Shown piece by piece: positions 1 through 32,261 of a DNA stretch of 64,000 nt. Under the pieces are notes generated by a model, which saw nothing but the letters and a program-made list of their open reading frames with translations, did not search any database and had not been told where the DNA came from. Numbering within the stretch: position 1 is the first letter of the stretch; each line of letters starts with the position of its first letter. The position numbers and the translations under genes were made by a program. The stretch lies in NCBI RefSeq assembly GCF_056712565.1, contig NZ_CM160072.1. One strand, given 5' to 3'.

Positions 1-1247
1 ATTGGCATCCAGGCAGCAATACCACTGGGATCGTTAGTGTGGATCACCCAGGAAATGATTGCAGAACCAACCAGTGGCGCGATCCCTCCGGCAATAACGG
101 CAGAAACTTCCCTTGCCAGTGCGACGCCAATATAACGATGGCGAGCACCAAAGAGTTCAGGCAGAAAAGCACCTTGTGCACCAAACATACCCCAGGCTCC
201 AATCCCTAAGGCCAGAGAAAGAGAGACAATAGTGACAGGAACATTACCGTGGCTGAAAGACCACCACACCGGAAAGGTAATCAACAACTGAAAAATCGCC
301 AGACTACGATAGACAAGAACCCTGCCGAAGCGATCGGTCAGCCAACCGGCAATAGGCACCATAATTGCACCGACTACTACCGCAGACATCAGGCATAGCG
401 TACCAACTGATTTGTCCAGCCCAACCACACCAACGATATAACTGATCGCTAAAGCCTGATAAATCGACGAGCCGCCGTTTTCTGCCAGACGTAAGCCAAT
501 CCCGACGAAGACATTACGGCGTGATGTTTTCAGCAAATTTCGTAAGGGTGATTCTGTAACTTGTTGACGAGCTTCGAGTTTTGCGAATGATGGCGATTCT
601 TTAAGATGCAGTCGAATATAAATAGCCACCGCGATAATCACCACGCTGGAGAGGAAGGGCAAGCGCCACCACCAGGTTTCGGCAAGATTTGTCACATTAT
701 GCAGCAGGATGAAGTAAACGGCAGATGCCATAAACGTACCAATCTGGATTCCGAGGAACGGCAGCGCGGCGTAATAACCCCGTTTGCCGTCAGGAGCATA
801 TTCGGTCATCAGTACGGCGGCTCCCGCCTGTTCAGCCCCAGCACCAAGCCCTTGCAGCAGGCGTAATGCAATAAGCATAATTGGCGCCCAGATTCCCGCT
901 GTTTCGTAAGTGGGTAATACCCCGATCAACGTGCTGGCGATTCCCATTAACAACACCGTTGCTAACAGGACGAACTTACGGCCCAAACGATCACCTAATG
1001 AGCCGAAGATAATTCCGCCTACAGGTCTGACGGCAAATCCGAGAAAGTAGGTGCCAAAACTGGCGATCAGCGCCATTCCCGGTTCCTGATTAGGAAAAAA
1101 GAGTGGACCAAAAATAATGGCGGATGCCAGGCTGTAAAGTGCGAAATCGTAGTATTCCAGTGCGCTGCCGAGAGAGCAGGTCCACGCCGCGCGACGCAGA
1201 TCTGCCGATGAAACATTCGCTTTCTCTGCTGGTTGTGAAGGTTGCAT
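1..1247 (-). CDS. MFS transporter, metabolite:H+ symporter (MHS; KgtP/ProP/ShiA-like) family; N-terminus at 1247, C-terminus beyond window start (partial)
   Basis: Own translation of the reverse strand from ATG (complement of 1245-1247) gives MQPSQPAEKANVSSADLRRAAW...; AAGGAG Shine-Dalgarno 6 nt upstream; MHS-type motifs EYYDFALY, RPVGGIIFGSLGDRLGRK and WLTDRFGR. Not in the ORF track because it runs off the window. Confidence 0.8.
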   Translation of the reverse strand, partial: MQPSQPAEKANVSSADLRRAAWTCSLGSALEYYDFALYSLASAIIFGPLFFPNQEPGMALIASFGTYFLGFAVRPVGGIIFGSLGDRLGRKFVLLATVLLMGIASTLIGVLPTYETAGIWAPIMLIALRLLQGLGAGAEQAGAAVLMTEYAPDGKRGYYAALPFLGIQIGTFMASAVYFILLHNVTNLAETWWWRLPFLSSVVIIAVAIYIRLHLKESPSFAKLEARQQVTESPLRNLLKTSRRNVFVGIGLRLAENGGSSIYQALAISYIVGVVGLDKSVGTLCLMSAVVVGAIMVPIAGWLTDRFGRVLVYRSLAIFQLLITFPVWWSFSHGNVPVTIVSLSLALGIGAWGMFGAQGAFLPELFGARHRYIGVALAREVSAVIAGGIAPLVGSAIISWVIHTNDPSGIAAWMP

Positions 1248-3936: not shown

Positions 3937-4971
3937 ATGGCGAAGTCGGATACAGGAAGAAAGCGGGTAACATTAACCGATGTTGCGCGTGCGGCTGGCG
4001 TTTCGAAATCGACCGTATCGCTGGTTCTCAACGACAGTTCACTTATCAAAAAAGAGACTCAACAAAAAGTCCAGCAAGCCATTGAACAATTAGGCTATGT
4101 CTATAACCGTTTTGCTGCCAATCTGCGTTCGCAAAAATCGCTAACTATCGGCGTAGTCATTGACGATTTGATAAATCCTTTCTTCGCTGAATTTACTATG
4201 GGTCTTGAGATGACGCTGGCGGAGCACGGTTTTATCACCGTGATGTCCAATACCTCCCAGCGTAGTGACCGGCAAAAACAGGTGCTTGATACCTTGCTGG
4301 AACACCACGTCGCGGGCATTGTCCTCTGTCCAGTGAACAGTACCTCAGAAGCCGATTTACAGCGTTATGCCAACAGTTCCACACCCTTATTAATCACGAT
4401 GCGCCCTCTGGATTGGCAACAATTGCCCGTCGATTACGTTGGCGTGGACAGCCACGCAGGTGTACGGGAAGCGACGGAATATCTCATTCAACAAGGGCAC
4501 AGAGATATCGTGTTTATTGGTGGTCTTACGCACCATATGCGTTATCAGGGATACCTTGAGGCGATGAATCACCATGGTTTACAGCCGTGGAGTACTGATG
4601 CTTTTTCGCTGCGTGCTGAACCGACTCAGGCCAACGGCTACCAGTTGATGCAACAGCTGTTGGATATGCCTTCGCCACCCACAGCGGTGATTTGTTATAA
4701 CGATTTAATGGCTTTTGGCGCGGAGTCGGCACTAGGCGAAAGAGGATTATTTGCCGGGGAAGATATTTCGTTGATTGGTAATGATGGCGTGGCGGCTTGT
4801 GCTTACAGTAACCCGCCGTTAACCACAATTGCGGTAGAACCATTGGCTCTGGGGAAACAGGCGGCGCAGCAAATTTTACGGCGTATTGCGCAACCAGACG
4901 CACCGCTCAGCCATTACATCTATCGCCCGACCCTGCAAATTCGCGCTTCCACCGGAAAGCGGGGGCGTTAA
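3937..4971 (+). CDS. LacI/GalR-family transcriptional regulator, divergent from the CoA-transferase operon
   Basis: ORF-track ORF 3910-4971 trimmed to ATG 3937 (GGAG SD 5 nt upstream); N-terminal HTH VTLTDVARAAGVSKSTVSLVLN; periplasmic-binding-like effector domain. Confidence 0.8.
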   Translation: MAKSDTGRKRVTLTDVARAAGVSKSTVSLVLNDSSLIKKETQQKVQQAIEQLGYVYNRFAANLRSQKSLTIGVVIDDLINPFFAEFTMGLEMTLAEHGFITVMSNTSQRSDRQKQVLDTLLEHHVAGIVLCPVNSTSEADLQRYANSSTPLLITMRPLDWQQLPVDYVGVDSHAGVREATEYLIQQGHRDIVFIGGLTHHMRYQGYLEAMNHHGLQPWSTDAFSLRAEPTQANGYQLMQQLLDMPSPPTAVICYNDLMAFGAESALGERGLFAGEDISLIGNDGVAACAYSNPPLTTIAVEPLALGKQAAQQILRRIAQPDAPLSHYIYRPTLQIRASTGKRGR

Positions 4972-9166: not shown

Positions 9167-9247
9167 CTTTGAACATCCACTCGATCTTCGTCTACTTCCG
9201 GTTTATTGTGTTTTAACCACCTGCCCGTAAACCTGGAGAACCATCGC

Positions 9248-10441
9248 GTGTTTCAAAAAGTTGACGCCTACGCTGGCGACCCGATTCTTACGCTTATGGA
9301 GCGTTTTAAAGAAGACCCTCGCAGCGACAAAGTGAATTTAAGTATCGGTCTGTACTACAACGAAGACGGAATTATTCCACAACTGAAAGCCGTAGCGGAT
9401 GCGGAAGCGCGCCTGAATGCGCAGCCTCATGGTGCTTCGCTTTATTTACCGATGGAAGGGCTTAACAGCTATCGCCATGCCATTGCGCCGCTGCTGTTTG
9501 GTGCGGACCATCCGGTACTGCAACAACAGCGCGTAGCAACCATTCAAACCCTTGGCGGCTCAGGGGCATTGAAAGTGGGTGCAGATTTCCTGAAACGCTA
9601 CTTCCCGGAATCAGGCGTCTGGGTCAGCGATCCTACCTGGGAAAACCACGTAGCAATATTCGCCGGGGCTGGATTCGAAGTAAGTACTTACCCCTGGTAT
9701 GACGAAGCGACTAACGGCGTGCGCTTTAATGACCTGTTGGCGACGCTGAAAACATTACCTGCCCGCAGTATTGTGTTGCTGCATCCATGTTGCCACAACC
9801 CAACGGGTGCCGATCTCACTAATGACCAGTGGGATTCCGTGATTGAAATTCTCAAAGCCCGCGAGCTTATTCCATTCCTCGATATTGCCTATCAAGGATT
9901 TGGTGCCGGTATGGAAGAGGATGCCTACGCCATTCGCGCCATTGCCAGCGCTGGATTACCCGCTCTGGTGAGCAATTCGTTCTCGAAAATTTTCTCCCTT
10001 TACGGCGAGCGCGTCGGCGGACTTTCTGTTCTGTGTGAAGATGCCGAAGCCGCAGGCCGCGTACTGGGGCAATTGAAAGCAACCGTTCGCCGCAACTACT
10101 CCAGCCCGCCGAATTTTGGTGCGCAGGTGGTGGCTGCGGTGCTGAATGACGAGGCATTGAAAGCCAGCTGGCTGGCGGAAGTAGAAGAGATGCGTACTCG
10201 CATTCTGGCAATGCGTCAGGAACTGGTGAAGGTATTGAGCACAGAGATGCCAGAGCGCAATTTCGATTATCTGCTTAATCAGCGCGGCATGTTCAGTTAT
10301 ACCGGTTTAAGAACCGCTCAGGTTGACCGACTACGTGAAGAATTTGGTGTCTATCTCATCGCCAGCGGTCGCATGTGTGTCGCCGGGCTTAACGCGCAAA
10401 ATGTGCATCGCGTGGCAAAGGCGTTTGCTGCGGTGATGTGA
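9248..10441 (+). CDS. tyrB: aromatic amino acid aminotransferase TyrB
   Basis: 397 aa from GTG 9248 ([14 protein letters not shown]...), matching the K-12 length; PLP-lysine context [16 protein letters not shown]. Confidence 0.9.
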
Positions 10442-10449
10442 TTTTAATC

Positions 10450-10473
10450 AACAGGCGGATCTCTCCGCCTGTT
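10450..10473 (+). terminator. stem-loop after tyrB (10-bp stem, 4-nt loop, no clear U-tract)
   Basis: AACAGGCGGA-TCTC-TCCGCCTGTT read directly 9 nt after the tyrB stop. Confidence 0.4.
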
Positions 10474-10571
10474 CCTGACTCCAGCCATCCCCTACTATTC
10501 TGTCCCTTTTTTCGCCCACTTTTACATCATCTCTTTTCTATAAGTTTTTGAAAATTAGTGTTTTTAACTGT

Positions 10572-10587
10572 TGGTACGGATTGTGCA
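10572..10587 (+). promoter_or_regulatory. candidate sigma-54 (-24/-12) promoter for the 2-oxoglutarate dehydrogenase operon
   Basis: TGGTACGGATTGTGCA: GG and GC separated by 10 nt, two mismatches to TGGCACG-N4-TTGC; 36 nt upstream of the E1 ATG; an NtrC-family activator gene is in the same island. Confidence 0.55.
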
Positions 10588-10622
10588 GTAATGCGGCTGT
10601 CTATGACCATCAGGAGAAAAAC

Positions 10623-13367
10623 ATGGAGAACATGACCTCGCCCGGCACGCTGCTTAGTGGAGATAACGCGACCTGGCTTGAAGAGTACTACCAGACCTGG
10701 TTGCGTACGCCGGAACAACTCCCGGAAGACTGGCGGCGTTTTTTTCTTTCACCTGAACTGACTGTCCAAAGCGTATCCGGTGATAACAACGTCAGCGGTG
10801 CGACGTTAAAAAAACAGGCTGCGGTAATACAACTGATCAATGCCTGGCGCACGCAGGGGCATCTGCGCGCAAAGCTTGATCCACTTGGTTTGAATCCCCC
10901 AGCTGACGTTCCCTCCCTCCAGCCTGGTTTTTGGGGATTAAGCGAAGAAGACTTGTTGCAGGAGTTTAGCGTCACCTTTGGCGCACACACCACGCAAATG
11001 CCACTTAAGCAACTGCTTAACCTGCTGGAGCAAGCCTGGGCCGGTAGCCAGGCTTATGAACTTGCTCATCTGGAAAATCGTGAAGAAATCAACTGGTTGT
11101 TATCACGGATTGAGAGCAGCAATGCGCCACAAGCTGATGCCCAAACCTGCATTGCCCGTTTTGAAAAACTGATGGCGGCAGAGACGTTAGAGCGTTATCT
11201 GCATACCCGTTATGTTGGGCAGAAACGGTTTTCTCTGGAAGGGGGCGAAAGTGCAATCCCGGCGCTCGATACGCTGACAAAACGCCTGCGTGCGCAAGGT
11301 GTGGAGGAAATGGTCATTGGCATGGCGCACCGGGGAAGACTTAATGTTCTGGTTAATCTGTTGAATAAAGACCCGGCACAGCTTTTTGCTGAGTTTGAAG
11401 GCAAGCAGACGATCGGCAGTGGTTCAGGCGATGTGAAATACCACATGGGGTATTCCAGCAATCTGGAAACACCTGCCGGTTCGCTGCATGTGGCGCTGGC
11501 GTATAACCCCTCACATCTGGAGATCGTGAATCCGGTGGTGCTGGGCCAGGTGCGAGCCAGGCAGGAACGCCGTGGTGAGGATGGTCAGGCAAAAGTGGTG
11601 GGCGTACTTATTCATGGGGATTCCGCGTTGGGCGGCCTCGGCGTCAACCAAACCACGTTTAACTTATCGCAGACTCAGGGCTACGGCACTGGCGGTACGC
11701 TACATCTGGTGATTAACAATCAGATTGGCTTCACCACTTCCCGCTTGCAGGATATGCGTTCTTCACGGTACTGCACCGATATTGCCAAAATGGTAGCGGC
11801 CCCAATTATCCACGTTAATGGCGATGACGTTGACGCTGTTTGCCAGGTAATGGAACTGGCGTGCGAATGGCGAGACACCTTCCGGCGCGACATCATCATC
11901 GATATTTGCTGCTTCCGTAAGCACGGACACAACGAAAGCGATGAGCCACGTCTTACCCAGCCACAAATGTATCAGGCAGTGGATGCTCACCCTGGTACGC
12001 TCGCCCGTTATGGTGAATCTCTTGCCCGCCGCGGCCTGTTAACTCAGGCGCAACAAGATGAGATGACGGCACGCTATCGCGACTGGCTGGATAGCTGCCA
12101 GAAACGTGAACCGCAGCCTCTCAAACCTGCAATTCACTCTTTTAGCGCTAACTGGTATGGGTTGACCAACCCTCACTGGAGCGCCCCGGTATCTACGGCA
12201 TTGCCTCGGCAAAAGCTGGCAGCGTATGGTGAAATCATTTCTACACTGCCACCCGATGTGGTCGCACATCCTACCATTAAACGGCAACTGGCGTTACGCC
12301 AGGATATGGCCGCAGGTACTCAGCCAATAGACTGGGGAATGGCTGAAATGCTGGCCTATGCATCGCTTGTGGATGCGGGTGTTGGTGTGCGTCTTTCTGG
12401 TGAAGACTCAGGGCGTGGCACGTTCAGTCATCGCCATGCAGTGGTACATCATCAAACTGAAGCCCGTCGTTATCTGCCGTTACAGCATATCCGCGCTGGT
12501 CAGGCATCTTTCGATGTTTATGATTCGGTGCTTAATGAAGAAGCGCTCTTAGCCTTTGAATATGGCTATTCAACGTCTGCGCCTCAGCAACTGGTTATTT
12601 GGGAAGCGCAGTTTGGTGACTTTGCCAACGGCGCTCAGGTTGCTATTGACCAGTTTATCTCGTCTGGCGAAACCAAGTGGGATCGCTATAGCGGTTTAAC
12701 CATTCTTCTGCCGCATGGCTATGACGGACAAGGGCCGGAGCACTCTTCTGCGCGTCCTGAGCGCTGGCTGCAACTGTGCGCAGAAAACAACATGCAGGTG
12801 GTGATGCCCAGTGAGTCAGCACAAATGTTCCATTTGCTGCGCGGTCAGGCATTACGCCCAATGCGCAAACCGTTAGTGATAATGATGAGTAAGCGTTTAC
12901 TTCGGTTTAAAGGCGCTATGAGCGAGCTTTCTGAATTCACTGATGGCGCTTATAAACCGGTAGTCACCGATCCGCAATTGCATCAGTCCCAGAAAGTTAA
13001 GCGCGTTATTTTGTGTAGCGGCCAGGTCTATTACGACGTACTGGAAGCCCGTAAGCAGCGTGAGTGTGAAGATGAGGTAGCGATTGTTCGCCTGGAGCAA
13101 CTCTACCCGTTCCCGGTCGCAGAACTGAATGATGTTCTGGCGAGTTGGCCGAACTGCTGCGAATGGATTTGGTTGCAGGAAGAGCCAGAAAACCAGGGCG
13201 CGTGGCGGCAGATTCGTCATGAGCTGGCGGCACTGAAAATTAACACTCCTTACTGGCAGTATGCAGGCCGCCCGGCAGTGGCAGCTCCGGCGACAGGGTA
13301 TGGGCGTGTACATAAACAACAAATCGACGAATTTCTTGCTGCTGCGTTTGCAGATATTCAGCCATGA
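10623..13367 (+). CDS. 2-oxoglutarate dehydrogenase E1 component paralog (SucA-like)
   Basis: ORF-track ORF 10548-13367 (TTG) trimmed to ATG 10623 with AGGAGA SD; ThDP region HGDSALGGLGVNQTTFNLSQTQGYGTGGTLHLVINNQIGFTTS parallels SucA. Confidence 0.9.
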   Translation: MENMTSPGTLLSGDNATWLEEYYQTWLRTPEQLPEDWRRFFLSPELTVQSVSGDNNVSGATLKKQAAVIQLINAWRTQGHLRAKLDPLGLNPPADVPSLQPGFWGLSEEDLLQEFSVTFGAHTTQMPLKQLLNLLEQAWAGSQAYELAHLENREEINWLLSRIESSNAPQADAQTCIARFEKLMAAETLERYLHTRYVGQKRFSLEGGESAIPALDTLTKRLRAQGVEEMVIGMAHRGRLNVLVNLLNKDPAQLFAEFEGKQTIGSGSGDVKYHMGYSSNLETPAGSLHVALAYNPSHLEIVNPVVLGQVRARQERRGEDGQAKVVGVLIHGDSALGGLGVNQTTFNLSQTQGYGTGGTLHLVINNQIGFTTSRLQDMRSSRYCTDIAKMVAAPIIHVNGDDVDAVCQVMELACEWRDTFRRDIIIDICCFRKHGHNESDEPRLTQPQMYQAVDAHPGTLARYGESLARRGLLTQAQQDEMTARYRDWLDSCQKREPQPLKPAIHSFSANWYGLTNPHWSAPVSTALPRQKLAAYGEIISTLPPDVVAHPTIKRQLALRQDMAAGTQPIDWGMAEMLAYASLVDAGVGVRLSGEDSGRGTFSHRHAVVHHQTEARRYLPLQHIRAGQASFDVYDSVLNEEALLAFEYGYSTSAPQQLVIWEAQFGDFANGAQVAIDQFISSGETKWDRYSGLTILLPHGYDGQGPEHSSARPERWLQLCAENNMQVVMPSESAQMFHLLRGQALRPMRKPLVIMMSKRLLRFKGAMSELSEFTDGAYKPVVTDPQLHQSQKVKRVILCSGQVYYDVLEARKQRECEDEVAIVRLEQLYPFPVAELNDVLASWPNCCEWIWLQEEPENQGAWRQIRHELAALKINTPYWQYAGRPAVAAPATGYGRVHKQQIDEFLAAAFADIQP

Positions 13368-13399: not shown

Positions 13400-14554
13400 A
13401 TGATCGAAATTACTGTCCCTGTATTACCGGAATCTGTCACGGAAGGCACGCTGACAACCTGGTGTAAACAAGAAGGCGAGCACGTAAAACGCGATGATGT
13501 GATTGCCGAGCTGGAAACCGATAAAGTCATTCTGGAAATACCGGCCCCGCACGATGGCGTGTTAAGCAATATTATCGTCAGCGAAGGTAGCACGGTCACG
13601 TCCGCGCAACTGTTGGCGCATCTTAAGCCGCAAGCTGTCATAGAAGAAACCGTCACACCAGTCACCGAAACCCTGGCGATGCCTTCCGCACGGCTGGAGG
13701 CACAGCGTAGTGGTGTTGAACTTGCTGACGTTGCGGGGAGCGGGAGAAATGGACGTATCCTGAAAGAGGATGTACAGCGCGTTACTCCTGCACCAGTCAT
13801 TCAGCCTGAACGGGTGGCGGAGATCGCGCCAGCTAAACCCTTGACACCGGGTGCTCGTCAGGAACGTCGTGAGCCGATGTCGCGCTTACGTCAGCGAATT
13901 GCTGAGCGTCTGCTGGCTTCCCAACAAAATAACGCCATTCTTACCACATTCAACGAAGTAAACATGCAGAGCGTGATGGATTTACGCACCCGCTGGAAAG
14001 ATCGTTTTGCCGAGAAGCACGGCGTGAAGCTGGGCTTTATGTCCTTCTTTGTTAAGGCCGTTACCCGGGCGCTGGAGCGCTTCCCTGTAGTGAATGCCAG
14101 CGTTGATGGCAACGAGATTATCTGGCGTGATTATTGCGATATCGGCATTGCAGTGAGCAGCAACCGCGGCCTGGTAGTGCCTGTGTTACGCAATGCGCAA
14201 TCACTCTCTTTGGTGGAAATTGAACGGCAAATTGCCGAATACGCCACACAGGCACGCAATGGCAAATTGCCGCTGGAGGCGTTACAGGGCGGCACGTTCT
14301 CTATCACCAACGGCGGTACTTTTGGTTCGATGATGTCAACGCCAATCATTAACCCGCCGCAGTCGGCCATTCTTGGGATGCATGCCATCACGCCGCGCCC
14401 GGTCGCAGAAAACGGCCAGGTTGTTATTCGTCCCATGATGTACCTTGCTCTCAGCTATGACCATCGCATTATCGATGGTCAGGAAGCCGTGCAGACATTG
14501 GTGGCAATACGTGAGCTACTGGAATCACCGGAACAACTGTTGCTGGATCTTTAA
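13400..14554 (+). CDS. dihydrolipoyllysine-residue succinyltransferase E2 paralog (SucB-like)
   Basis: 384 aa; lipoyl-lysine motif [14 protein letters not shown]; catalytic [11 protein letters not shown]; AAGGAGA SD. Confidence 0.9.
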
Positions 14555-18060: not shown

Positions 18061-18078
18061 TCCATAAATGAATATCAA

Positions 18079-18102
18079 GGGAGCATATCGCTCCCTTTTT
18101 TT
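18079..18102 (+). terminator. rho-independent terminator ending the dehydrogenase/synthetase operon
   Basis: GGGAGC-ATATC-GCTCCC followed by an 8-T run, 19 nt after the sucD-like stop. Confidence 0.65.
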
Positions 18103-18215
18103 ATCTGTGTGGTAAGGGAATCATCTTTTAATAACTGTGCGGAAAACCGCGCATAAAATAAAAAGGATAAATAGCTAACTCATTAAATAACAAAGCGTTA
18201 TTAAAAAATTAAAGA

Positions 18216-18231
18216 TGGCATAGCTCCTGCA
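18216..18231 (+). promoter_or_regulatory. candidate sigma-54 (-24/-12) promoter for the transporter / Ldh_2 operon
   Basis: TGGCATAGCTCCTGCA: GG-N10-GC, close to consensus; about 40 nt upstream of ATG 18272. Confidence 0.6.
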
Positions 18232-18271: not shown

Positions 18272-19771
18272 ATGTCATCAATATCCCATGGCGCACCACA
18301 AAAGCGTCGAATTATCCCTAATCCCGGCCTGTGGTTGGCGATCATTGCCGGAATTATTATTACCCTTCTGCCACTGGGCGATACCTTGCCCGTCGCCGGA
18401 CAAAATATGATCGCCATTCTGGTGTTTGCCATTATTGTCTGGATCAGCGAAGCGATGGATTACACCGCCAGTGCAATTGTTATTTCCGCACTGATTATCT
18501 TTATGGTTGGTTTTGCCCCGGATATGAATCACCCGGACACGATCCTTGGCACCGCGAAAGCGCTGAAAATGACTCTGTCGGGTTTTTCTAATTCTGCTCT
18601 GGCGCTGGTGGCAGCAGCAATGTTTATCGCGGCGGCAATGACCATTACCGGGCTGGATAAACGCATTGCGCTGTTTACTATGTCGAAAATAGGTGCCAGC
18701 AGCCGCAGCATTATTATCGGTGCCATTGTGGTGACCATCGTCCTGAGCCTGGTTGTACCCAGTGCCACTGCCCGTACGGCTTGCGTGGTGCCGATTATGA
18801 TGGGGGTCATTGCGGCATTTAAGGTGGATAAACATTCACGTTTAGCGGCGTCAATGATGATTGTTATCGCCCAGGCGACCAGTATCTGGAACGTTGGTAT
18901 TCAAACTTCGGCGGCGCAAAACCTGCTTTCTATCGGTTTTATCAATAAAACTTTCGGCGCCGGGCATTCTGTCAGCTGGCTTGACTGGCTGTTAGCGGGC
19001 GCGCCCTGGAGCCTCACCATGTCGGTGATCCTCTATTTCCTCGCACGTAAATTGTTGCCGCCAGAAACGGAAGCTGTTGAAGGGGGGAGCGAGGCCATTA
19101 AAAAAGCACTCGCAGAGTTAGGGCCAACCACCGGTAAAGAAAAACGCTTGATCGGTATTTCGCTATTGTTACTGCTCTTTTGGTCTACTGGCGGAAAATT
19201 ACACAGTATTGATACCACCTCTGTCACCCTTGCCGGACTGGCGATTATGTTGCTGCCAGGCATCGGTGTAATGAGCTGGAAAGAGGTCGAAAAACGTGTG
19301 CAGTGGGGCACGTTGCTGATGTTTGGTATTGGTATCAGCCTGGGGTCCACGCTGCTTGATACGCAGGCAGCTTCATGGATGGCGAACTATGTGGTGAAAG
19401 GTTTTGGTCTTGATGGCTTGCCATCATTAGCCATCTTCGCGATTCTCGCCGCTTTCTTGATAATTATTCACCTGGGGTTTGCCAGTGCCACTGCGCTAAC
19501 TGCCGCATTGCTGCCCATCCTGATTAGCCTGTTAAGCAGTCTGCCGCCAGAACTCGGCGTTAACCCGGTCGGCATGACCATTCTGCTCGCCTTCAGTGTC
19601 AGTTTTGGCTTCATCCTGCCGATTAACGCGCCACAAAATATGGTGTGTATGGGTACGGATACCTTCACGCCACGCCAGTTTACCCGTGTGGGACTGTACC
19701 TGACGGTAATCGGCTACCTGTTGTTGCTACTGTTTGCCGCCACCTGGTGGAAAATTTTAGGTCTAATGTGA
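18272..19771 (+). CDS. anion permease (DASS/CitT-like ion-transporter superfamily), probable 2-oxoglutarate/dicarboxylate uptake
   Basis: ORF-track ORF 18266-19771 (GTG) trimmed to ATG 18272; polytopic hydrophobic 499-aa protein; island context. Confidence 0.75.
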   Translation: MSSISHGAPQKRRIIPNPGLWLAIIAGIIITLLPLGDTLPVAGQNMIAILVFAIIVWISEAMDYTASAIVISALIIFMVGFAPDMNHPDTILGTAKALKMTLSGFSNSALALVAAAMFIAAAMTITGLDKRIALFTMSKIGASSRSIIIGAIVVTIVLSLVVPSATARTACVVPIMMGVIAAFKVDKHSRLAASMMIVIAQATSIWNVGIQTSAAQNLLSIGFINKTFGAGHSVSWLDWLLAGAPWSLTMSVILYFLARKLLPPETEAVEGGSEAIKKALAELGPTTGKEKRLIGISLLLLLFWSTGGKLHSIDTTSVTLAGLAIMLLPGIGVMSWKEVEKRVQWGTLLMFGIGISLGSTLLDTQAASWMANYVVKGFGLDGLPSLAIFAILAAFLIIIHLGFASATALTAALLPILISLLSSLPPELGVNPVGMTILLAFSVSFGFILPINAPQNMVCMGTDTFTPRQFTRVGLYLTVIGYLLLLLFAATWWKILGLM

Positions 19772-19782
19772 GGAAACCAACG

Positions 19783-20856
19783 ATGTCATTACAAATTGCT
19801 GTTGAAAAAGTGCGTTGGTTAGCTGCCGGGCTGCTGGAACTTAATGGCTGTGATGCCGATATCGCTCAGGATGTGGCGGAACATATGATTGAAGCGGAAC
19901 GTTATGGCTTTGCCAGCCACGGCGTCACGCTGCTACCGAAATATCTGGAAAATATCGCTCGTGGCGATGTAACCGCGAATGCCCGCCCGGAATGCTTAAC
20001 AAGTGAAGGTAATTTACAACGTTTTCATGCCCACAATGGCTTTGGTCAACACGCCGGAAAAGTGGCGGTAAATGCTGCCATCGAACAAGCAAAACACCGC
20101 GGTTTTTGCCTGTTAACGTTGTGCCATGCGCATCATTTAGGGCGTATGGGGCATTACGGGCAAATGGTTGCTGATCAAGGCCTGGCGATGCTGGCCATGA
20201 GTAACGTCACCGGGCGTCCGGCACTGGTCGCCCCGTGGGGCGGTGCGGAACCGCGTATGACCACTAACCCTTTCTGCTTTGCCTGGCCGTTCAGTGATGG
20301 GCGTCCGCCGATTCTGGTTGATTTTGCCACCAGTAGCATGGCGCTAAATAAAGCACGGGTAATGTCGTCCACCGGGAAGCAGGCCGCGCCGGGACAATTG
20401 ATCGATGCACAGGGGAATCCAAGCAATGATCCTGGGGTGTTATTCAGCAATCCTCCAGGGGCGTTACTGCCATTTGGTGAGCATAAAGGATTTGGCCTGG
20501 CACTGATGATTGAAATGATGGCGGGGATCTTATCTGGTGGTGACACGATCGCCGAAGATCATCAGACGGATGGATCTGCGCATAATCATCTTTTTGCGTT
20601 GATTATCGATCCTGATCAATTCACCGATCTGGCAGGGGAGAAAGGGCAGTTCTTTGCGGATTATCTGTTAGCTACGCAGCCTCAACCTGGCGGCAATCCG
20701 GTGATTTACCCCGGTATGCCAGAAGCTGCCAACCGGGAACGCAATGCGAAGATGATTACGATCCCGGTATCATTCTGGTCCTGGATAGTTGAACATTACG
20801 CCCGCAAAGGTATCGATTTGGGGTTACATCCTCAGGAATCAGCATTAGCTGGATGA
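19783..20856 (+). CDS. Ldh_2-family (malate/L-lactate dehydrogenase 2 type) 2-hydroxyacid/2-oxoacid oxidoreductase
   Basis: ORF-track ORF 19645-20856 trimmed to ATG 19783 (GAGGAAA SD; the upstream extension would overlap the transporter gene); 357 aa. Confidence 0.7.
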   Translation: MSLQIAVEKVRWLAAGLLELNGCDADIAQDVAEHMIEAERYGFASHGVTLLPKYLENIARGDVTANARPECLTSEGNLQRFHAHNGFGQHAGKVAVNAAIEQAKHRGFCLLTLCHAHHLGRMGHYGQMVADQGLAMLAMSNVTGRPALVAPWGGAEPRMTTNPFCFAWPFSDGRPPILVDFATSSMALNKARVMSSTGKQAAPGQLIDAQGNPSNDPGVLFSNPPGALLPFGEHKGFGLALMIEMMAGILSGGDTIAEDHQTDGSAHNHLFALIIDPDQFTDLAGEKGQFFADYLLATQPQPGGNPVIYPGMPEAANRERNAKMITIPVSFWSWIVEHYARKGIDLGLHPQESALAG

Positions 20857-22203
20857 TTCTGGTCGATAAACTTGCGGTTGAATCTGATGTTTGTTGAGTT
20901 TGTCATATAAAGTCTTGCGCGGCAGCTGTAATAGCCGCGCTGTCAAACTGACTTGGCCTTCCGTTTGTCGCAGCATATCTTCGATTAACTTTTTCTCGAA
21001 AGCATCAATGCAGGCGGTAAGGCCACTCTCTTCTTGCTGAGTCATTGGCACTGGCTGGTGGTGGGTCAGTAAACCGAGAACAAAACGCTCTGCATTGTGT
21101 TTAAGTTCACGTACATTGCCAGGCCAACTTTGTGATTGCAACCAGGCCAGTAACATGGGAGAAATATCAGGCAGAGGACGATTATATTTTTGTGCCGCCT
21201 GACTGGCGAACCAGTAAAACAGTTCAGGGATATCTTCTCGTCGCTGGCGTAGAGGTGGAATATTCAAGCTAACCACATTCAGACGATAATAGAGATCGAG
21301 ACGAAACAGATGTTCTTCGCTGCGACGCAGTAAATCTTCCTTGGTCGCTGCAATAACACGGCAATTCACCGGAATTAATTGATTGGCACCTAATCGTTCA
21401 ATGGTTCTTTCCTGCAATACACGTAGCAGTTTTACCTGCATTCCTGATGGCATTCCCTCTATTTCATCGAGAAATAACGTACCACCATTTGCATGTTCAA
21501 TTTTTCCAATACGCTTTTTAACCGCACCGGTAAATGCGCCCGCCTCATGACCAAATATTTCGCTTTCAAACAACGTTTCTGGTAAGCCTGCACAGTTTAA
21601 GGCAACAAACTGCCCCTGACGGCGGGTACTCCAGTGATGCAGCATTCTGGCGACGACTTCTTTACCACAACCTGTTTCACCATAAATAAGGACATCGGCA
21701 CCGGTATCTGCGACATTAAGGATCATTTTACGCAGTTGTTGCATCTGCGGACTACGACCAATCAGCACCGGGCCATTTTCCTGTTGCAGATTCGCCAGTA
21801 ATTGCTGATTTTCTAAAACCAATCGCCGTTTTTCTACCGCTCTGGCAATAATACTCAATAATTTATCTGAGCTACTTGGTTTCTCAATGAAATCGAATGC
21901 ACCATTACGCATGGCATCCACCGCCATTTCCACGTCACCGTGTCCGGTAATTAAAATAACCGGAATTTTGCTATCCATTTCGTTGATGTAACTGAGGAGC
22001 TCTAGTCCTGATATTCCAGGTAACCTGACATCGGTCAGTATAATAATGTTGGCTTGACTTTGAATAAGGGGAATACTGTGTTCTGCATCGCAACAGGAAA
22101 TAACACGATAACCAGCCAGCGTGAGCGTTTGTTCACAGGCAAAACGTACATCGTCACTATCCTCAATATAAACTATAGTAATTTCACTGGATTTATTATT
22201 CAT
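20845..22203 (-). CDS. kguR: sigma-54-dependent response regulator (NtrC family); matches KguR of the alpha-ketoglutarate utilization island
   Basis: 452 aa; receiver domain (IILTDVRLPG); AAA+ Walker A GETGCGKE; GAFTGA motif; C-terminal HTH. Gene name recalled from the UPEC literature, not verified here. Confidence 0.85.
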   Translation of the reverse strand: MNNKSSEITIVYIEDSDDVRFACEQTLTLAGYRVISCCDAEHSIPLIQSQANIIILTDVRLPGISGLELLSYINEMDSKIPVILITGHGDVEMAVDAMRNGAFDFIEKPSSSDKLLSIIARAVEKRRLVLENQQLLANLQQENGPVLIGRSPQMQQLRKMILNVADTGADVLIYGETGCGKEVVARMLHHWSTRRQGQFVALNCAGLPETLFESEIFGHEAGAFTGAVKKRIGKIEHANGGTLFLDEIEGMPSGMQVKLLRVLQERTIERLGANQLIPVNCRVIAATKEDLLRRSEEHLFRLDLYYRLNVVSLNIPPLRQRREDIPELFYWFASQAAQKYNRPLPDISPMLLAWLQSQSWPGNVRELKHNAERFVLGLLTHHQPVPMTQQEESGLTACIDAFEKKLIEDMLRQTEGQVSLTARLLQLPRKTLYDKLNKHQIQPQVYRPESSS

Positions 22204-24016
22204 GTTCTTCTCCCCATTCAGGCCAGGTTAATGTCATTACTGCGCCGCCTTCAGGATGATTACTGGCGTGGAGTGCGCCGTTCGAATTTCGGACAATTTC
22301 GCTGACTATTGCCAGTCCCAACCCCATTCCTCTACGTTTAGTGGTAAAAAATGGTTCAAATATGCGATCGACAACTTCAGGTGCAAAACCGCCACCGCTG
22401 TCTTTAATGGTAATAATAACTTTGTTATTTGCCTGGCGAATGGCGATATCCAGTCGTTTGTAAGAGCTACCTTCCATAGAATCTAAGGCGTTGCTAATTA
22501 AATTACTGAATATCTGTTCAAGACCGAGCTCATCGCAATTGACAAATAACGGCATGGATGGGGCTTTTATTCGTCGCTCAATGTTATTTTTCTCCATGCT
22601 GTGATTAAGTAACGCCACGGCGCTATACATCACTTTGATGACATCGGCAGAACCTTTAGGTACGCGATGGCGCGAGGCAAATGCTTTAAGTTCGGAAATG
22701 AGCTGCGTCATCCGCTCAATCACTGAAATAATGTGTTTCAGATTCTGTTCAACCTGCGGATACATCTCTTTTTTTAGCATAGTACGCGCGTTATCAGTAA
22801 GTGCGTGAATGGCGGCTAACGGTTGATTTTGTTCATGGGCAATTTCGGTTGCCATCTGTCCAAGCGCCGCCAGTTTGCTGGACTCTGCCAGTTCACTACG
22901 CGTAATTTGTAATACTTGTTCAGCCTGACTGCGCTCTTTTATCTCCTGTATTAATTTTTGATTGATCAATTCCAGGGCAGATGTACGCTCTTTAACCTGT
23001 TTTTCTAATGTTTCATTCGCCAGTGTTAATAATTGTTGTGCATGAGATCGCATTCTCCAGTATTTAATAAATAACAAAAACAGCAGGTAAATAATTAGTG
23101 TAATGACTAACGAAATAGCCCATGACCAGTACAGGTTATCTAAGGGGACCATAATTGTCATTTTCCAGTTAAATTCTGGAATGGCTATTTGTTGCGTATA
23201 ATATTGCGGGAATAAACAGAGTTGTTCTTTTTTATCTTTCAGGAAAGTAAAATTGCTCACGGTATAACAGGGATAATAATCCGCCGGTAAAAGATTGTCG
23301 AGACTATATTGACGGGTAGATTGTAGTTTTTGTTTTGCCTGAACAGGTAACGGTTGCAGTGTTCGCATTCGCCATGGCGATTTTGAACTTAAAAATATAA
23401 TCCCATGTTCATCATTCACGATAATATTTTCAGGACCTTCGGCCCATGCTTTTTCAATTTCATTAAGACTTATTTTTACTACTACAACACCGACAATTTT
23501 TCCTTTATCTTTTATACTTGTAGAGAGGAAGAATCCCGGTGTATTTGTAGTGCTACCAATACCGTAAAAGCGTCCATTTAAGCCAGACATGGCGTGTTTA
23601 TAATAGGGGCGATAGCTATAATTTTGCCCTACATAGCTGCCGGGGTCCTGCCAGTTGCTAGAAGCGATGGCCTTACCTTGGGTATCCAGAATAAATATTG
23701 CTGCGGTTTTGAGTTGAGTATTGAAATGTGCAATTCGTTGATTGAGTTCGCTGGACGTCATATCGTCAGGCGTAATTACCGCCTGACGGATGATATGGTC
23801 TGTTGAGAGCATATAGGGTAAAACATAAAATTGCTCGATGGTGGAATATAATGTGGACTTATACATTTCAAGCCGCATTTTATCGGTACCGGACAAGGTA
23901 TTAAAACGCAAGTGCAAAAAAGCGATTGAAACCGCGAGCATGATAAGAAAAAGTGAAATGCTTGTAATGTGAAATCGCCATTTGTTCTTAAATATATAAT
24001 TCCACGATATTTTCAT
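22196..24016 (-). CDS. kguS: sensor histidine kinase (DctB-like, periplasmic sensing domain); matches KguS
   Basis: 606 aa; two TM segments flanking a roughly 270-aa periplasmic domain; H-box ATEIAHEQNQPLAAI; ATPase G-box DSGGGF; stop overlaps the kguR start by 8 nt. Confidence 0.85.
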   Translation of the reverse strand: MKISWNYIFKNKWRFHITSISLFLIMLAVSIAFLHLRFNTLSGTDKMRLEMYKSTLYSTIEQFYVLPYMLSTDHIIRQAVITPDDMTSSELNQRIAHFNTQLKTAAIFILDTQGKAIASSNWQDPGSYVGQNYSYRPYYKHAMSGLNGRFYGIGSTTNTPGFFLSTSIKDKGKIVGVVVVKISLNEIEKAWAEGPENIIVNDEHGIIFLSSKSPWRMRTLQPLPVQAKQKLQSTRQYSLDNLLPADYYPCYTVSNFTFLKDKKEQLCLFPQYYTQQIAIPEFNWKMTIMVPLDNLYWSWAISLVITLIIYLLFLLFIKYWRMRSHAQQLLTLANETLEKQVKERTSALELINQKLIQEIKERSQAEQVLQITRSELAESSKLAALGQMATEIAHEQNQPLAAIHALTDNARTMLKKEMYPQVEQNLKHIISVIERMTQLISELKAFASRHRVPKGSADVIKVMYSAVALLNHSMEKNNIERRIKAPSMPLFVNCDELGLEQIFSNLISNALDSMEGSSYKRLDIAIRQANNKVIITIKDSGGGFAPEVVDRIFEPFFTTKRRGMGLGLAIVSEIVRNSNGALHASNHPEGGAVMTLTWPEWGEEHE

Positions 24017-24196
24017 TCATCATCCATTGAATGCATTTATATTTATCATCAGTATATTCCCTGAACAATGTTTGCGAGAACCAAAAGAGTGCCATTGTGT
24101 GAATGTGTAAGCAGAATAACCGTGGCAATGTGTGGTTTATCGCACAGGTATTCCAAATGTGATCATGCTCTTTTTATGTGACAAATCCGCAGATAA

Positions 24197-30348: not shown

Positions 30349-31935
30349 ATGAGTCATCGTGCACGACACCAATTACTGGCGTTTCCGGGCATTATCTTTT
30401 TAGTTCTCTTTCCCATCATTCTGTCGCTATGGATTGCCTTCTTTTGGGCAAAATCAGAAGTGAATAATCAGCTCCGAACCTTTGCTCAGCTGGCGTTGGA
30501 TAAATCTGAGCTGGTCATTCGTCAGGCAGATTTAGTGAGCGATGCAGCTGAACGCTATCAGGGGCAAGTTTGCACTCCAGCCCATCAAAAGCGAATGTTG
30601 AATATTATTCGTGGCTATCTTTATATTAATGAATTGATTTATGCTCGTGATAACCATTTTTTATGCTCATCGCTGATAGCGTCTGTAAATGGCTATACGA
30701 TTGCACCGGCCGATTATAAGCGCGAACCTAACGTTTCTATCTATTATTACCGTGATACGCCTTTTTTCTCTGGCTATAAAATGACCTACATGCAGCGGGG
30801 AAATTATGTGGCGGTTATCAACCCTCTCTTCTGGAGTGAAGTGATGTCTGATGATCCGACATTGCAATGGGGAGTGTATGATACGGTGACGAAAACCTTT
30901 TTCTCGTTAAGCAACGAGGCCTCGGCAGCAACGTTTTCTCCGCTGATTCATTTGAATGATTTAACCGTACAACGAAATGGCTATTTATATGCGACAGTTT
31001 ATTCGACAAAACGCCCAATTGCAGCCATTGTTGCGACTTCATATCAACGTCTTATAACTCATTTTTATAATCATCTTATTTTTGCGTTGCCCGCCGGTAT
31101 TTTGGGGAGTCTTGTTCTGCTATTACTCTGGCTACGTATTCGACAAAACTATTTGTCTCCCAAACGCAAATTGCAACGCGCCCTCGAAAAACATCAACTT
31201 TGCCTTTATTACCAGCCAATAATCGATATCAAAACAGAAAAATGTATCGGCGCTGAAGCGTTGTTACGTTGGCCTGGTGAGCAGGGGCAAGTAATGAATC
31301 CGGCAGAGTTTATTCCGCTGGCAGAAAAGGAGGGGATGATCGAACAGGTAACTGATTATGTTATTGATAATGTCTTCCGTGATTTGGGCGCGTATCTGGC
31401 AACACATACCGATCGCTATGTTTCTATTAACCTGTCAGCCTCCGATTTTCATACCTCACGGTTGATAGCGCGAACCAATCAGAAAACAGAGCAACATGCG
31501 GTGCGTCCGCAGCAAATTAAATTTGAAGTGACTGAACATGCATTTCTTGATGTCGACAAAATGACGCCGATTATTCTGGCTTTCCGCAAGGCCGGTTACG
31601 AAGTGGCAATTGATGATTTTGGTATTGGCTACTCTAACTTGCATAACCTTAAATCATTGAATGTCGATATTTTGAAAATCGATAAATCGTTTGTTGAGAC
31701 GCTGACCACCCACAAAACCAGTCATTTGATTGCGGAACACATCATCGAGCTGGCGCACAGCCTGGGGTTAAAAACGATCGCTGAAGGTGTCGAAACTGAG
31801 GCGCAGGTTAACTGGCTGCGCAAACGCGGCGTGCGCTATTGCCAGGGATGGTTCTTCGCGAAGGCGATGCCGCCGCAGGTGTTTATGCAATGGATGGAGC
31901 AATTACCCGCGCGGGAGTTAACGCGCGGGCAATAA
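30349..31935 (+). CDS. pdeC: cyclic-di-GMP phosphodiesterase PdeC (CSS-motif sensor plus EAL domain)
   Basis: ORF-track ORF 30340-31935 (TTG) trimmed to ATG 30349; 528 aa; EAL domain motifs EALLRW and DDFGIGYS. Confidence 0.9.
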
Positions 31936-31937
31936 AA

Positions 31938-32261
31938 CTACAGGCGGTGGCGATAATCGCTGGGAGTGCGATCAAACTGCCGACGGAAAACGCGGGAGAA
32001 GGTCTGCTGAGAGACATAACCCAGGTCCATTGCGATATCAAAAATCGGACGCTCGGTGGTGCGCAACTCAACGGCGGCCAGTAACAGACGGCGCTGGCGA
32101 ATGTAATCGCCAAGCGTCTGATGCGTCACCGTGCGGAACATCCGTTGCAAGTACCACTTTGAATAGCCAGATTTTTTTGCGACGACATCAATGTTAAGCG
32201 GCTGGTCAATATGCTCGTCAATCCATGCGATAAGATCCTGAATAATTTTCTGATGGGACAT
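31938..32261 (-). CDS. soxS: superoxide-response AraC-family activator SoxS
   Basis: 107 aa; MSHQKIIQDLIAWIDEHIDQPL... Confidence 0.95.
   Translation of the reverse strand: MSHQKIIQDLIAWIDEHIDQPLNIDVVAKKSGYSKWYLQRMFRTVTHQTLGDYIRQRRLLLAAVELRTTERPIFDIAMDLGYVSQQTFSRVFRRQFDRTPSDYRHRL

Follow-up and report, generated by a model that had tools for sequence, protein, structure and literature searches.

The locus examined here raises the question of whether a junction at which an oxidoreductase gene and a response regulator gene meet tail to tail, sharing their last nucleotides, is a dedicated regulatory element or an ordinary by-product of a missing spacer. The junction lies in a window of 64,000 nucleotides, the whole stretch of DNA that was analysed (assembly GCF_056712565.1, contig NZ_CM160072.1), and belongs to the kgu island (c5032-c5041 of strain CFT073), which is located between tyrB and aphA. 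The island is strain-variable and is present in 1045 of 5426 complete E. coli genomes. A plasmid search for the island returned just two E. coli records, of 27 kb and 834 kb, both predicted to be non-mobilizable, and was uninformative; the 834-kb record resembles a chromosomal fragment. The first gene of the plus-strand operon is the orthologue of c5038 (18272..19771), annotated as a CDS in RefSeq and encoding a DASS-family alpha-ketoglutarate transporter (Pfam Na_sulph_symp, E 1e-117). It is followed by the orthologue of c5039 (19783..20856, plus strand), which encodes an Ldh_2-family oxidoreductase of 357 amino acids (PF02615, E 4.5e-94). On the minus strand, kguR (c5040; 20845..22203) encodes a sigma-54-dependent response regulator of 452 amino acids composed of a receiver, a sigma-54 AAA+ and an HTH_8 domain (Pfam Response_reg, Sigma54_activat at 1.1e-67, and HTH_8), and kguS (c5041; 22196..24016) encodes a dCache histidine kinase according to Pfam and RefSeq. 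kguS and kguR are co-oriented, share 8 bp and are co-transcribed (PMC8716947).

The function of KguR has been described previously (PMC3694859, PMC8716947), and the island was reported to be organised in two operons, c5032-5037 and c5038-5039 (PMC3694859). KguR activates the c5038-c5039 operon as well as kguSR, and its binding site follows the consensus TGTG(T/C)G-N5-15-C(G/A)C(G/A)CA, with an EMSA performed on the kguSR promoter (PMC8716947). Inverted repeats that resemble this site by eye are located upstream of c5038 (TGTGCG-N6-CGCGCA, 18136..18153, plus strand) and upstream of kguS (TGTGCG-N6-CACACA, 24129..24146, minus strand), and the latter would be consistent with the published positive autoregulation of kguSR. 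The c5038 promoter carries an RpoN -24/-12 motif (PMC5318444), and a sigma-54 -24/-12-like element, TGGCATAGCTCCTGC, is found upstream of c5038 at 18216..18230 on the plus strand; the GG-N10-GC pattern search gave 247 hits, which is far too permissive, and is informative for the 18216 site alone. In the wild type, kguS and c5039 are jointly induced, by about 2^8-fold, and in a kguR deletion mutant they drop together with a mean log2 fold change of -7.99 (PMC8716947). The supplementary tables of PMC8716947, which were searched for per-gene RNA-seq values of c5038-c5041, contain primer lists only. Directional RNA-seq libraries (NEBNext Ultra Directional kit; NMDC40014023-28) exist for the CFT073 wild type and the kguR deletion mutant after anaerobic growth on alpha-ketoglutarate, and Fig. 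S2 of Cai 2013 presents an RT-PCR across c5039 and c5040.

The Ldh_2 gene and kguR share 12 bp at 20845..20856 (TTAGCTGGATGA). Within them the codon boundaries of the two frames coincide, Ldh_2 being read as L-A-G-stop and KguR as S-S-S-stop. The Ldh_2 stop is the TGA at 20854-56 on the plus strand, and the kguR stop is a TAA, the complement of TTA at 20845-47, on the minus strand. Both gene identities and the overlap of the two stops had been proposed in a first-pass annotation, and both are borne out: the same 12 bp are found in the sequence, in the ORF listing and in the RefSeq annotation of NZ_CP033092.2 (E. coli ATCC 11775, from which the window derives), which is 100% identical and in whose corresponding locus (L001) Ldh_2 spans 9184..10257 on the plus strand and kguR 10246..11604 on the minus strand. 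The pair thus consists of opposite-strand coding sequences that share 3' nucleotides, and both members are genuine genes with Pfam domains, orthologues in more than six genera, and support from CFT073 genetics and EMSA. All residues encoded by the overlap lie beyond the Pfam domains. The Ldh_2 domain stops at residue 333 and leaves a tail of 24 residues, and HTH_8 of KguR ends at residue 438 and leaves a tail of 14. An annotation artefact, in which one of the stops would not be a true gene end, was considered since Ldh_2 is misleadingly shown with a GTG start at 19645 in the longest-ORF listing; nothing was found in its favour. This explanation is effectively refuted by the full-length domain matches of both proteins, the agreement of RefSeq and the conservation of the tails in close relatives; the stop codons are unambiguous, and both genes have an experimental role or documented expression in CFT073.

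No terminator close to the junction emerged from a consensus scan covering 19500-22500; the single weak terminator-like site in this region (21371..21359; shuffle mean 3.3) is distant from it. A G+C-rich stem-loop followed by a U-tract, the hallmark of an intrinsic terminator, is absent at the junction, where the tails after the two flanking inverted repeats are UGUCAAAC and UGGCAGCU. The canonical intrinsic terminator at 18077..18097 on the plus strand (AAGGGAGC-loop-GCTCCCTT, then TTTTTT), which follows the sucD-like gene c5037 2.8 kb upstream of the junction and separates the c5032-5037 operon from c5038-5039, served as a positive control. Because the scan detects this site (three sites in the scan containing it, compared to 0.4 expected), a junction terminator would have been detected as well; further positive controls were two orthologous loci of the Vibrio type, L008 and L013. 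Folding of 181 nt across the junction was no better than that of shuffled sequences (z of -0.18 and -0.58 for the two strands), and an Rfam search of 20400-21300 at a permissive threshold gave no match. A 4-bp CAGC/GCUG hairpin on the overlap was dropped, as it is not conserved in Citrobacter or Klebsiella.

In the absence of a terminator between the genes, which the first-pass annotation had rightly noted, both transcription units must terminate within the opposite gene. As the stop codons lie at the outer ends of the overlap, any mRNA that includes its own stop contains all 12 nt, so that 3' ends before the overlap are possible only for stop-less mRNAs, and the two full-length transcripts are complementary at their 3' ends. 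The further claim that each transcript enters the opposite gene is therefore true, but only trivially so, by virtue of the positions of the stop codons. Downstream of both stops, C-rich and G-poor stretches were found whose composition appears suited to Rho: in the plus-strand RNA beyond the Ldh_2 stop, C/G reaches 1.57 at +66..195, around the 90th percentile of the window, and in the minus-strand RNA beyond the kguR stop it is 1.7-2.4 at +260..390, with the 95th percentile of the window at 1.73.

Overlaps of this kind are common. In a background sample of three 50-kb pieces (150 kb) of the same genome, from which the Ldh_2/kguR pair was excluded, four of the 20 convergent pairs have overlaps, of 4-38 bp (torR/torT, 28 bp; yccS/sxy, 38 bp; cspH/appA, 13 bp; tusE/yccX, 4 bp), and the Ldh_2/kguR overlap is not above this background expectation. 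E. coli K-12 contains 75 convergent overlapping gene pairs (PMC4161906) and 165 convergent transcript overlaps (PMC12288877), and from its predicted 3' ends the pair studied here would be one among many such E. coli transcript overlaps. Like Ldh_2 and kguR, the overlapping pairs of E. coli are genuine opposite-strand genes with a short 3' overlap of tail codons outside the domains and with too little space for an intergenic terminator, and in torR/torT, too, a response regulator gene overlaps a gene of its own signalling system. The Ldh_2/kguR pair differs from the usual ones in that it lies on a strain-variable island and in that both units are driven by a regulator encoded by the pair itself; nothing essential differs. 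The accepted origin of convergent overlaps is 3' extension after stop-codon loss (PMC2716372, PMC4161906), and an origin of the Ldh_2/kguR overlap through a stop-codon shift or 3' extension matches this model.

The junction was compared in 16 orthologous loci, 14 of the Enterobacterales type and two of the Vibrio type; Ldh_2 homologues of at most 51% identity and two of about 65% (L010 and L019), which sit in other gene contexts, were left out. An overlap of 12 bp is found in seven loci, of 4 bp in three, and of 11 bp and 44 bp in one each, and two loci (Salmonella and a relative) have a 1-bp gap. Thus all 14 Enterobacterales-type loci lack a spacer, their junctions lying between the extremes of a 1-bp gap and 44 shared bp: what the Enterobacterales have in common is the missing spacer, and the overlap itself is not uniformly conserved. 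Among close relatives, both protein tails are kept in length and sequence (ALAG* and ES[ST]S*). In Escherichia, Citrobacter and K. indica, Ldh_2 ends one frame over from the lineage with the 4-bp TTAA overlap, and three additional codons result in the 12 bp. The two Vibrio-type loci, L008 of Vibrio sp. Y2-5 and the metagenomic contig L013, share with the window the gene order of DASS transporter, Ldh_2 and convergent kguR-kguS, at 61-70% protein identity. In contrast to the window, they possess spacers of 504 bp and 345 bp, respectively, each with a strong canonical terminator (stems of 14 bp and 11 bp plus a T-run) that sits 17-26 nt past the Ldh_2 stop. Since the two units are insulated from each other in these loci, a kgu-type system works without an overlap.

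Taken together, the junction is likely an ordinary tail-to-tail overlap that arose from the loss or absence of a spacer, and not a dedicated regulatory element. In the Enterobacterales, the Ldh_2 gene would have come to abut kguR directly, with the spacer lost or absent from the start, and the exact geometry would be set by small indels and stop-codon shifts in C-terminal tails that appear to be unconstrained. The final 60 codons of Ldh_2 show no loss of synonymous-site diversity, and the only dip in kguR falls in the block that holds a hairpin discussed below (0.42 compared to a gene mean of 0.55). Both transcription units would then end inside the opposite gene, most likely by Rho acting on the untranslated RNA past each stop, by head-on encounters of polymerases, or by both, and the 3' ends may be trimmed back to stable hairpins such as the one at 20917-20940. 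The 3' ends of the two mRNAs would be complementary over a minimum of 12 nt, more probably over some 100-400 nt, and the effect on two units that are co-induced by KguR would be mild damping at most. Two observations count against this explanation: the absence of a spacer in 14 of 14 loci may be due to selection favouring overlapping transcripts and not to common descent, and invariant codons in the hairpin hint at a selected nucleic-acid element near the junction.

This hairpin, the GC-rich inverted repeat GCGCGGC-N10-GCCGCGC at 20917..20940, lies in the HTH-coding part of kguR (codons A422 R423 ... P428 R429), 61-84 nt past the Ldh_2 stop. Its perfect 7-bp G/C stem has a dG of -14.5 to -15.4 kcal/mol, a stability reached by 0.4% of the 30-nt windows across the 64 kb; there is about one comparably stable site per 1.2 kb. 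Of 11 Enterobacterales kguR orthologues, 10 have a stem of -12 to -22 kcal/mol, and 84% of the cells in the alignment are paired in register compared to 14-59% when the partner is slid. All 11 of these orthologues carry the same 5'-arm codons, GCG CGG, and only 3 of 142 conserved four- or sixfold degenerate codons are invariant overall; the hypergeometric P value of this post hoc test moves from 1.5e-4 with nine sequences to 4.4e-3 with 11, after the Salmonella-type sequences were added. Covariation is weak, with 2 of 10 pairs changing on both sides. The hairpin is thus stable and largely conserved, and these features are suggestive of a candidate RNA polymerase pause site or 3'-end stabiliser for the c5038-c5039 transcript, yet such a function is not claimed as established. 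A second, imperfect inverted repeat with 14-nt arms (86% complementary) at 20732..20768 inside Ldh_2, 77-113 nt past the kguR stop on the minus-strand RNA, was rejected as an element: it has no U-tract, synonymous sites are not conserved and Ldh_2 has no invariant codons there, so this repeat is probably incidental.

Two functional readings compete with the by-product explanation. The overlap could be a convergent excludon or interference device, in line with the antisense or collision-type coupling suggested in the first-pass annotation. Strong transcription of c5038-c5039, driven by KguR and sigma-54, would run into the 3' end of kguR and limit kguSR expression, either because polymerases collide or because RNase III cleaves the duplex, and would thus brake the positive autoregulation of KguR. 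We consider this unlikely. The missing terminator and the necessarily complementary transcripts speak in its favour, as does the dependence of both promoters on KguR (PMC8716947), so that collisions would grow with induction. The spacer is present in none of the Enterobacterales-type loci, excludons in E. coli correlate chiefly with a small distance between the genes (PMC12288877), and collision-driven termination of convergent E. coli genes has been demonstrated (bioRxiv 10.1101/2022.10.23.513370). Convergent excludons (Sesto et al. 2013; ExcludonFinder, PMC12288877) resemble the window in their opposite-strand neighbours, 3'-overlapping transcripts and short or zero intergenic distance. However, they are defined by an observed transcript overlap, mutually exclusive expression and RNase III processing, whereas the Ldh_2/kguR overlap is known from sequence and its genes are co-induced. 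The joint activation of both units by KguR argues against mutual exclusion, and the published data reveal no reciprocal expression (PMC8716947). Moreover, 146 of the 165 convergent excludons of E. coli have overlapping predicted terminators (PMC12288877), and none is predicted at Ldh_2/kguR. Neither the length nor the frame of the overlap is conserved, as illustrated by the 1-bp gap of the Salmonella-type loci, and the Vibrio-type loci keep the gene set and insulate the genes. The overlap encodes tail residues only, the synonymous diversity of the Ldh_2 end is not lowered and the dip in kguR is confined to the hairpin block. Published work on the locus describes no such effect; the terms 'overlap' and 'antisense' have 0 occurrences in PMC3694859 and PMC8716947.

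The other reading assigns the function to the hairpin, which would be a selected terminator or 3'-end stabiliser within kguR that replaced the lost intergenic terminator, placed the 3' end of the c5038-c5039 mRNA about 85-95 nt past the stop and thereby limited antisense transcription into kguR. It is compatible with the ordinary-overlap explanation as well as with interference. This, too, seems doubtful. The stability and conservation of the stem, the invariance of two 5'-arm codons, GCG for Ala and the rare CGG for Arg, and a single compensatory change (C-G to A-U) in Vibrio Y2-5 support it, and hairpins without a U-tract are known to position collision-driven bidirectional termination (bioRxiv 10.1101/2022.10.23.513370). 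Here, the U-tract is likewise missing on both strands, which weighs against a terminator. The peptide A-R-Q...L-P-R forms an antisense palindrome with itself, and common codons (GCG, CAG, CTG, CCG, CGC) nearly yield the stem by themselves. In the Salmonella locus L018, the stem is broken (CCT, TTA) without compensation, and in the Vibrio-type loci the hairpin is retained about 450 nt downstream of a real terminator and is therefore not tied to the overlap. The number of covarying pairs is equalled in 69 of 500 shuffles, the chance of finding such a site within 100 nt of a stop is roughly 8%, and Rfam holds no match. A combination of both ideas is more improbable still: the spacer-free junction and the codon-constrained hairpin might together form an intragenic collision-type bidirectional terminator, at which polymerases pile up at 20917-20940 once KguR fires the sigma-54 promoter of c5038; truncation or destabilisation of the kguSR transcripts might then act as a governor on the positive autoregulation of KguR while uropathogenic E. 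coli uses alpha-ketoglutarate, which we regard as a long shot. Bidirectional terminators that act by collision between convergent genes of E. coli were reportedly described by Ju et al. in 2019 (see also bioRxiv 10.1101/2022.10.23.513370). Like the window, such sites involve a convergent pair that lacks the sequence of an intrinsic terminator and, close to the ends of the genes, a palindrome that may fold into a hairpin and could trap polymerases arriving from both directions. However, the described terminators lie between genes and have sharp overlapping 3' ends in SEnd-seq, whereas the only candidate hairpin of the window is known from sequence and lies about 60 nt inside the kguR coding sequence, where trapping would truncate the kguR mRNA.

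As an ordinary by-product, the Ldh_2/kguR overlap matters little in itself, being one more among the roughly 10-20% of E. coli convergent pairs that overlap; it has previously gone unremarked although the regulation of the locus has been studied. In practice, a lacZ fusion or deletion scar placed directly after kguR, as in PMC8716947, alters the last codons of c5039, and the reverse is also true; likewise, strand-blind counting of RNA-seq reads mixes the signals of Ldh_2 and kguR. The natural series of junctions, from the Vibrio spacer with its terminator over the 1-bp gap of Salmonella to overlaps of 4-44 bp, offers a comparison for judging whether convergent transcription that enters a regulator gene carries a cost that can be measured. 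Were the interference reading correct, the junction would provide a virulence-associated two-component system with a simple brake encoded in cis.

The Ldh_2 gene (c5039) and kguR are a convergent overlapping gene pair. Their 12-bp overlap at 20845-20856, TTAGCTGGATGA, begins with TTA (20845-20847), the complement of the kguR stop codon TAA, ends with the Ldh_2 stop codon TGA (20854-20856), and is given alike by the ORF listing and the RefSeq annotation. It only codes for the tails past the Pfam domains, which extend to residue 333 of 357 in Ldh_2 and, in the case of HTH_8, to residue 438 of 452 in KguR. Since each stop codon forms the far end of the overlap for its own gene, all 12 nucleotides are part of every complete mRNA of either unit. 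Sequence, ORF listing and RefSeq thus bear out the coordinates, gene names and description in the first-pass annotation. It had named 3' ends before the overlap as evidence against its interpretation; however, as the 12 nucleotides are present in every complete mRNA, only mRNAs without a stop codon could end there.

The genes belong to the alpha-ketoglutarate utilisation island (c5032-c5041 in UPEC CFT073), which is inserted next to aphA (PMC3694859). On the plus strand, a sucAB/lpd/sucCD-like operon is located upstream of a nearly symmetrical, canonical terminator at 18077-18097, which was found by the consensus scan between the sucD-like gene (c5037) and c5038 and agrees with the published two-operon structure. 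A KguR-site-like inverted repeat (18136-18153) and a sigma-54 -24/-12-like element (18216-18230) lie 3' of this terminator, followed by the KguR- and sigma-54-dependent operon of c5038, encoding a DASS transporter (18272-19771), and c5039, encoding the Ldh_2-family oxidoreductase (19783-20856), both assigned by Pfam and RefSeq. The minus strand carries kguR (20845-22203) and kguS (22196-24016), identified by ORF listing, Pfam and RefSeq, and a second KguR-site-like inverted repeat is found upstream of kguSR (24129-24146). kguS and kguR overlap in the same direction by 8 bp (22196-22203); short same-direction overlaps are the usual layout of translationally coupled two-component genes. The RefSeq annotation used was that of NZ_CP033092.2, which is 100% identical to the window over 19600-22300 and assigns the window to the chromosome of E. 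coli ATCC 11775. The longest ORFs start upstream of the annotated starts for Ldh_2 (GTG 19645 vs 19783) and aphA (ATG 24224 vs 24293); the Ldh_2 ORF from 19645, with a 127-bp overlap with the end of c5038, is almost certainly not used. Of 5426 complete E. coli genomes, 1045 carry the island junction (query 19600-22300), with at least 99% identity in 1042 of these 1045; in genome H15 (NZ_CP054232.1), only 68% of the query is matched, which suggests a disrupted kguR. The junction also occurs on two 'plasmid' records, one of 27 kb and one of 834 kb. Both are predicted to be non-mobilizable, and the larger looks like a chromosomal fragment.

The junction has no intrinsic terminator. A consensus scan of 19500-22500 revealed no site at the junction, as the first-pass annotation had stated; the sole site is weak and lies deep inside kguR, fewer than in shuffled sequence. 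The fold of 181 nt across the junction is not better than that of shuffles on either strand (z -0.18 and -0.58), and an Rfam search of the junction region gave no match. The scan does detect the terminator after the sucD-like gene and strong ones in Vibrio-type orthologous loci. Inverted repeats are present inside Ldh_2 (20732-20768) and inside kguR (20917-20940), neither of which is followed by a U-tract. We infer where both transcription units end: the RNA past each stop codon is untranslated and open to Rho, and its C-over-G composition is moderately favourable for Rho at +66 to +195 of the plus RNA and clearly favourable at +260 to +390 of the minus RNA. Head-on polymerase encounters, which have been demonstrated to cause termination in other convergent E. 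coli pairs (bioRxiv 10.1101/2022.10.23.513370), may add to this. The best estimate for the complementary 3' regions would be roughly 100-400 nt.

Neighbouring genes on opposite strands with overlapping transcripts can form an excludon, the defining trait of which is reciprocal expression. The Ldh_2/kguR pair shows the opposite: KguR binds and activates the c5038 promoter (PMC3694859) and positively autoregulates kguSR (PMC8716947), so that the convergent units are switched on together, and in published RNA-seq kguS and c5039 shift jointly by ~2^8-fold (PMC8716947). This co-induction is at most compatible with a damping of the weaker unit by the stronger one. Furthermore, synonymous-site diversity is not reduced over the last 60 codons of Ldh_2, and the only dip within kguR coincides with the 20-codon block containing a hairpin (0.42 vs a gene mean of 0.55). 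Based on co-induction and synonymous diversity, it is unlikely that the convergent overlap has a real interference function, as the antisense or collision-type coupling of the first-pass annotation would imply, although geometry, genes, absent terminator and the 12 nucleotides in each full-length mRNA stand; the overlap is probably a by-product without a dedicated role. Directional RNA-seq libraries (NMDC40014023-28) exist for this system (PMC8716947).

The hairpin inside kguR (GCGCGGC-N10-GCCGCGC, 20917-20940) is located 61-84 nt past the Ldh_2 stop codon in the HTH codons A422-R423 … P428-R429, and could act as a pause or 3'-stabilising element of the c5038-c5039 transcript. At -14.5 to -15.4 kcal/mol, it ranks among the most stable 0.4% of all 30-nt windows across the 64 kb. 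Of 11 Enterobacterales orthologues, 10 form a stem with an energy between -12 and -22 kcal/mol, and GCG and the rare CGG of the 5' arm are invariant in all 11, whereas invariant codons make up only 3 of the 142 conserved four- or sixfold codons of the gene (P = 0.004). However, this P value weakened from 1.5e-4 with 9 sequences to 0.004 with 11, because CCT and TTA in the 3' arm of Salmonella break the stem. Covariation is weak, common codons nearly give the stem for the peptide ARQ…LPR, an antisense palindrome, hairpins of equal stability occur about once per 1.2 kb, and the hairpin is also kept in Vibrio-type loci with their own terminator. Such a role is doubtful, and the hairpin is a candidate rather than an established part.

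The junction was compared with 15 other loci, in which an Ldh_2 orthologue of 61-97% identity faces a kguR orthologue. The 12-bp overlap is found in E. coli, E. albertii, three Citrobacter, Klebsiella indica and one metagenomic contig, a 4-bp overlap (TTAA) in Entomohabitans and two metagenomic contigs, an 11-bp overlap in Pectobacterium, and a 44-bp overlap with a lengthened KguR tail in Brenneria. In Salmonella enterica (L018) and a related contig (L020), a 1-bp gap is present (4072-4078 in both), where a few extra bases past the Ldh_2 TGA lead to an earlier KguR stop (447 aa). Vibrio sp. Y2-5 (L008) and a related metagenomic contig (L013) possess AT-rich spacers of 504 bp and 345 bp, respectively, and in each of them a canonical intrinsic terminator begins 17-26 nt beyond the stop codon of Ldh_2 (L008 5082-5112, L013 3085-3110). 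The KguR C-terminus (…FR-x-x-ES-x-x-stop) is of equal length in most lineages. Between 4-bp and 12-bp lineages, the Ldh_2 frame differs by 1 nt relative to kguR, which lengthens Ldh_2 by three codons (from 354 to 357 aa); the substitutions seen among the 12-bp lineages are TTA to CTA and GGA to GGT, both synonymous in Ldh_2, whereas in KguR they turn the TAA stop into TAG and replace one Ser by Thr. Judged from these sequences, the variation is what the standard model for such overlaps predicts, with stop codons shifting within unconstrained tails (PMC2716372, PMC4161906), and is not that of an element selected for its own sequence or length. The common trait of the Enterobacterales-type loci is the missing spacer, which is inseparable from simple common ancestry with these data. 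Ldh_2 homologues of ~65% identity that do not adjoin kguR occur in locus L019, after an RraA-like gene and 22 bp from a LysR regulator that runs convergently (4065-4088), and in an unrelated context in Enterobacter asburiae (L010).

The Ldh_2/kguR overlap is not unusual. In three 50-kb stretches of the same genome, 4 of 20 convergent pairs other than Ldh_2/kguR overlap, namely torR/torT (28 bp), cspH/appA (13 bp), tusE/yccX (4 bp) and yccS/sxy (38 bp), and several more have a gap of only 2-38 bp, e.g., soxS/pdeC with 2 bp. The closest analogue is torR/torT, where a response-regulator gene likewise overlaps a convergent partner from the signalling system it belongs to; this overlap lies at 13483-13510 of sample L022 (NZ_CP033092.2 3013483-3013510), in the same 50 kb as the other three. 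In the window, pdeC (+) and soxS (-) are separated at 31935-31938, and a very stable hairpin (31900-31935; -18.7 kcal/mol, 30-nt window) within the pdeC end may be another embedded terminator for a convergent neighbour. For K-12, 75 convergent overlapping pairs (PMC4161906) and, by RNA-seq, 165 convergent transcript overlaps ('excludons'), which are favoured by short intergenic distance (PMC12288877), have been described. The Ldh_2/kguR pair would work like a convergent excludon or a collision-type bidirectional terminator, but is assignable to neither, as published data speak against reciprocity and the position of the kguR hairpin is atypical, respectively. The two main locus papers do not mention the overlap ('overlap' does not occur in PMC3694859, nor 'antisense' in PMC8716947), which makes it an unremarked member of a well-known kind, and the natural series of junction types provides a clean comparison for experiment.
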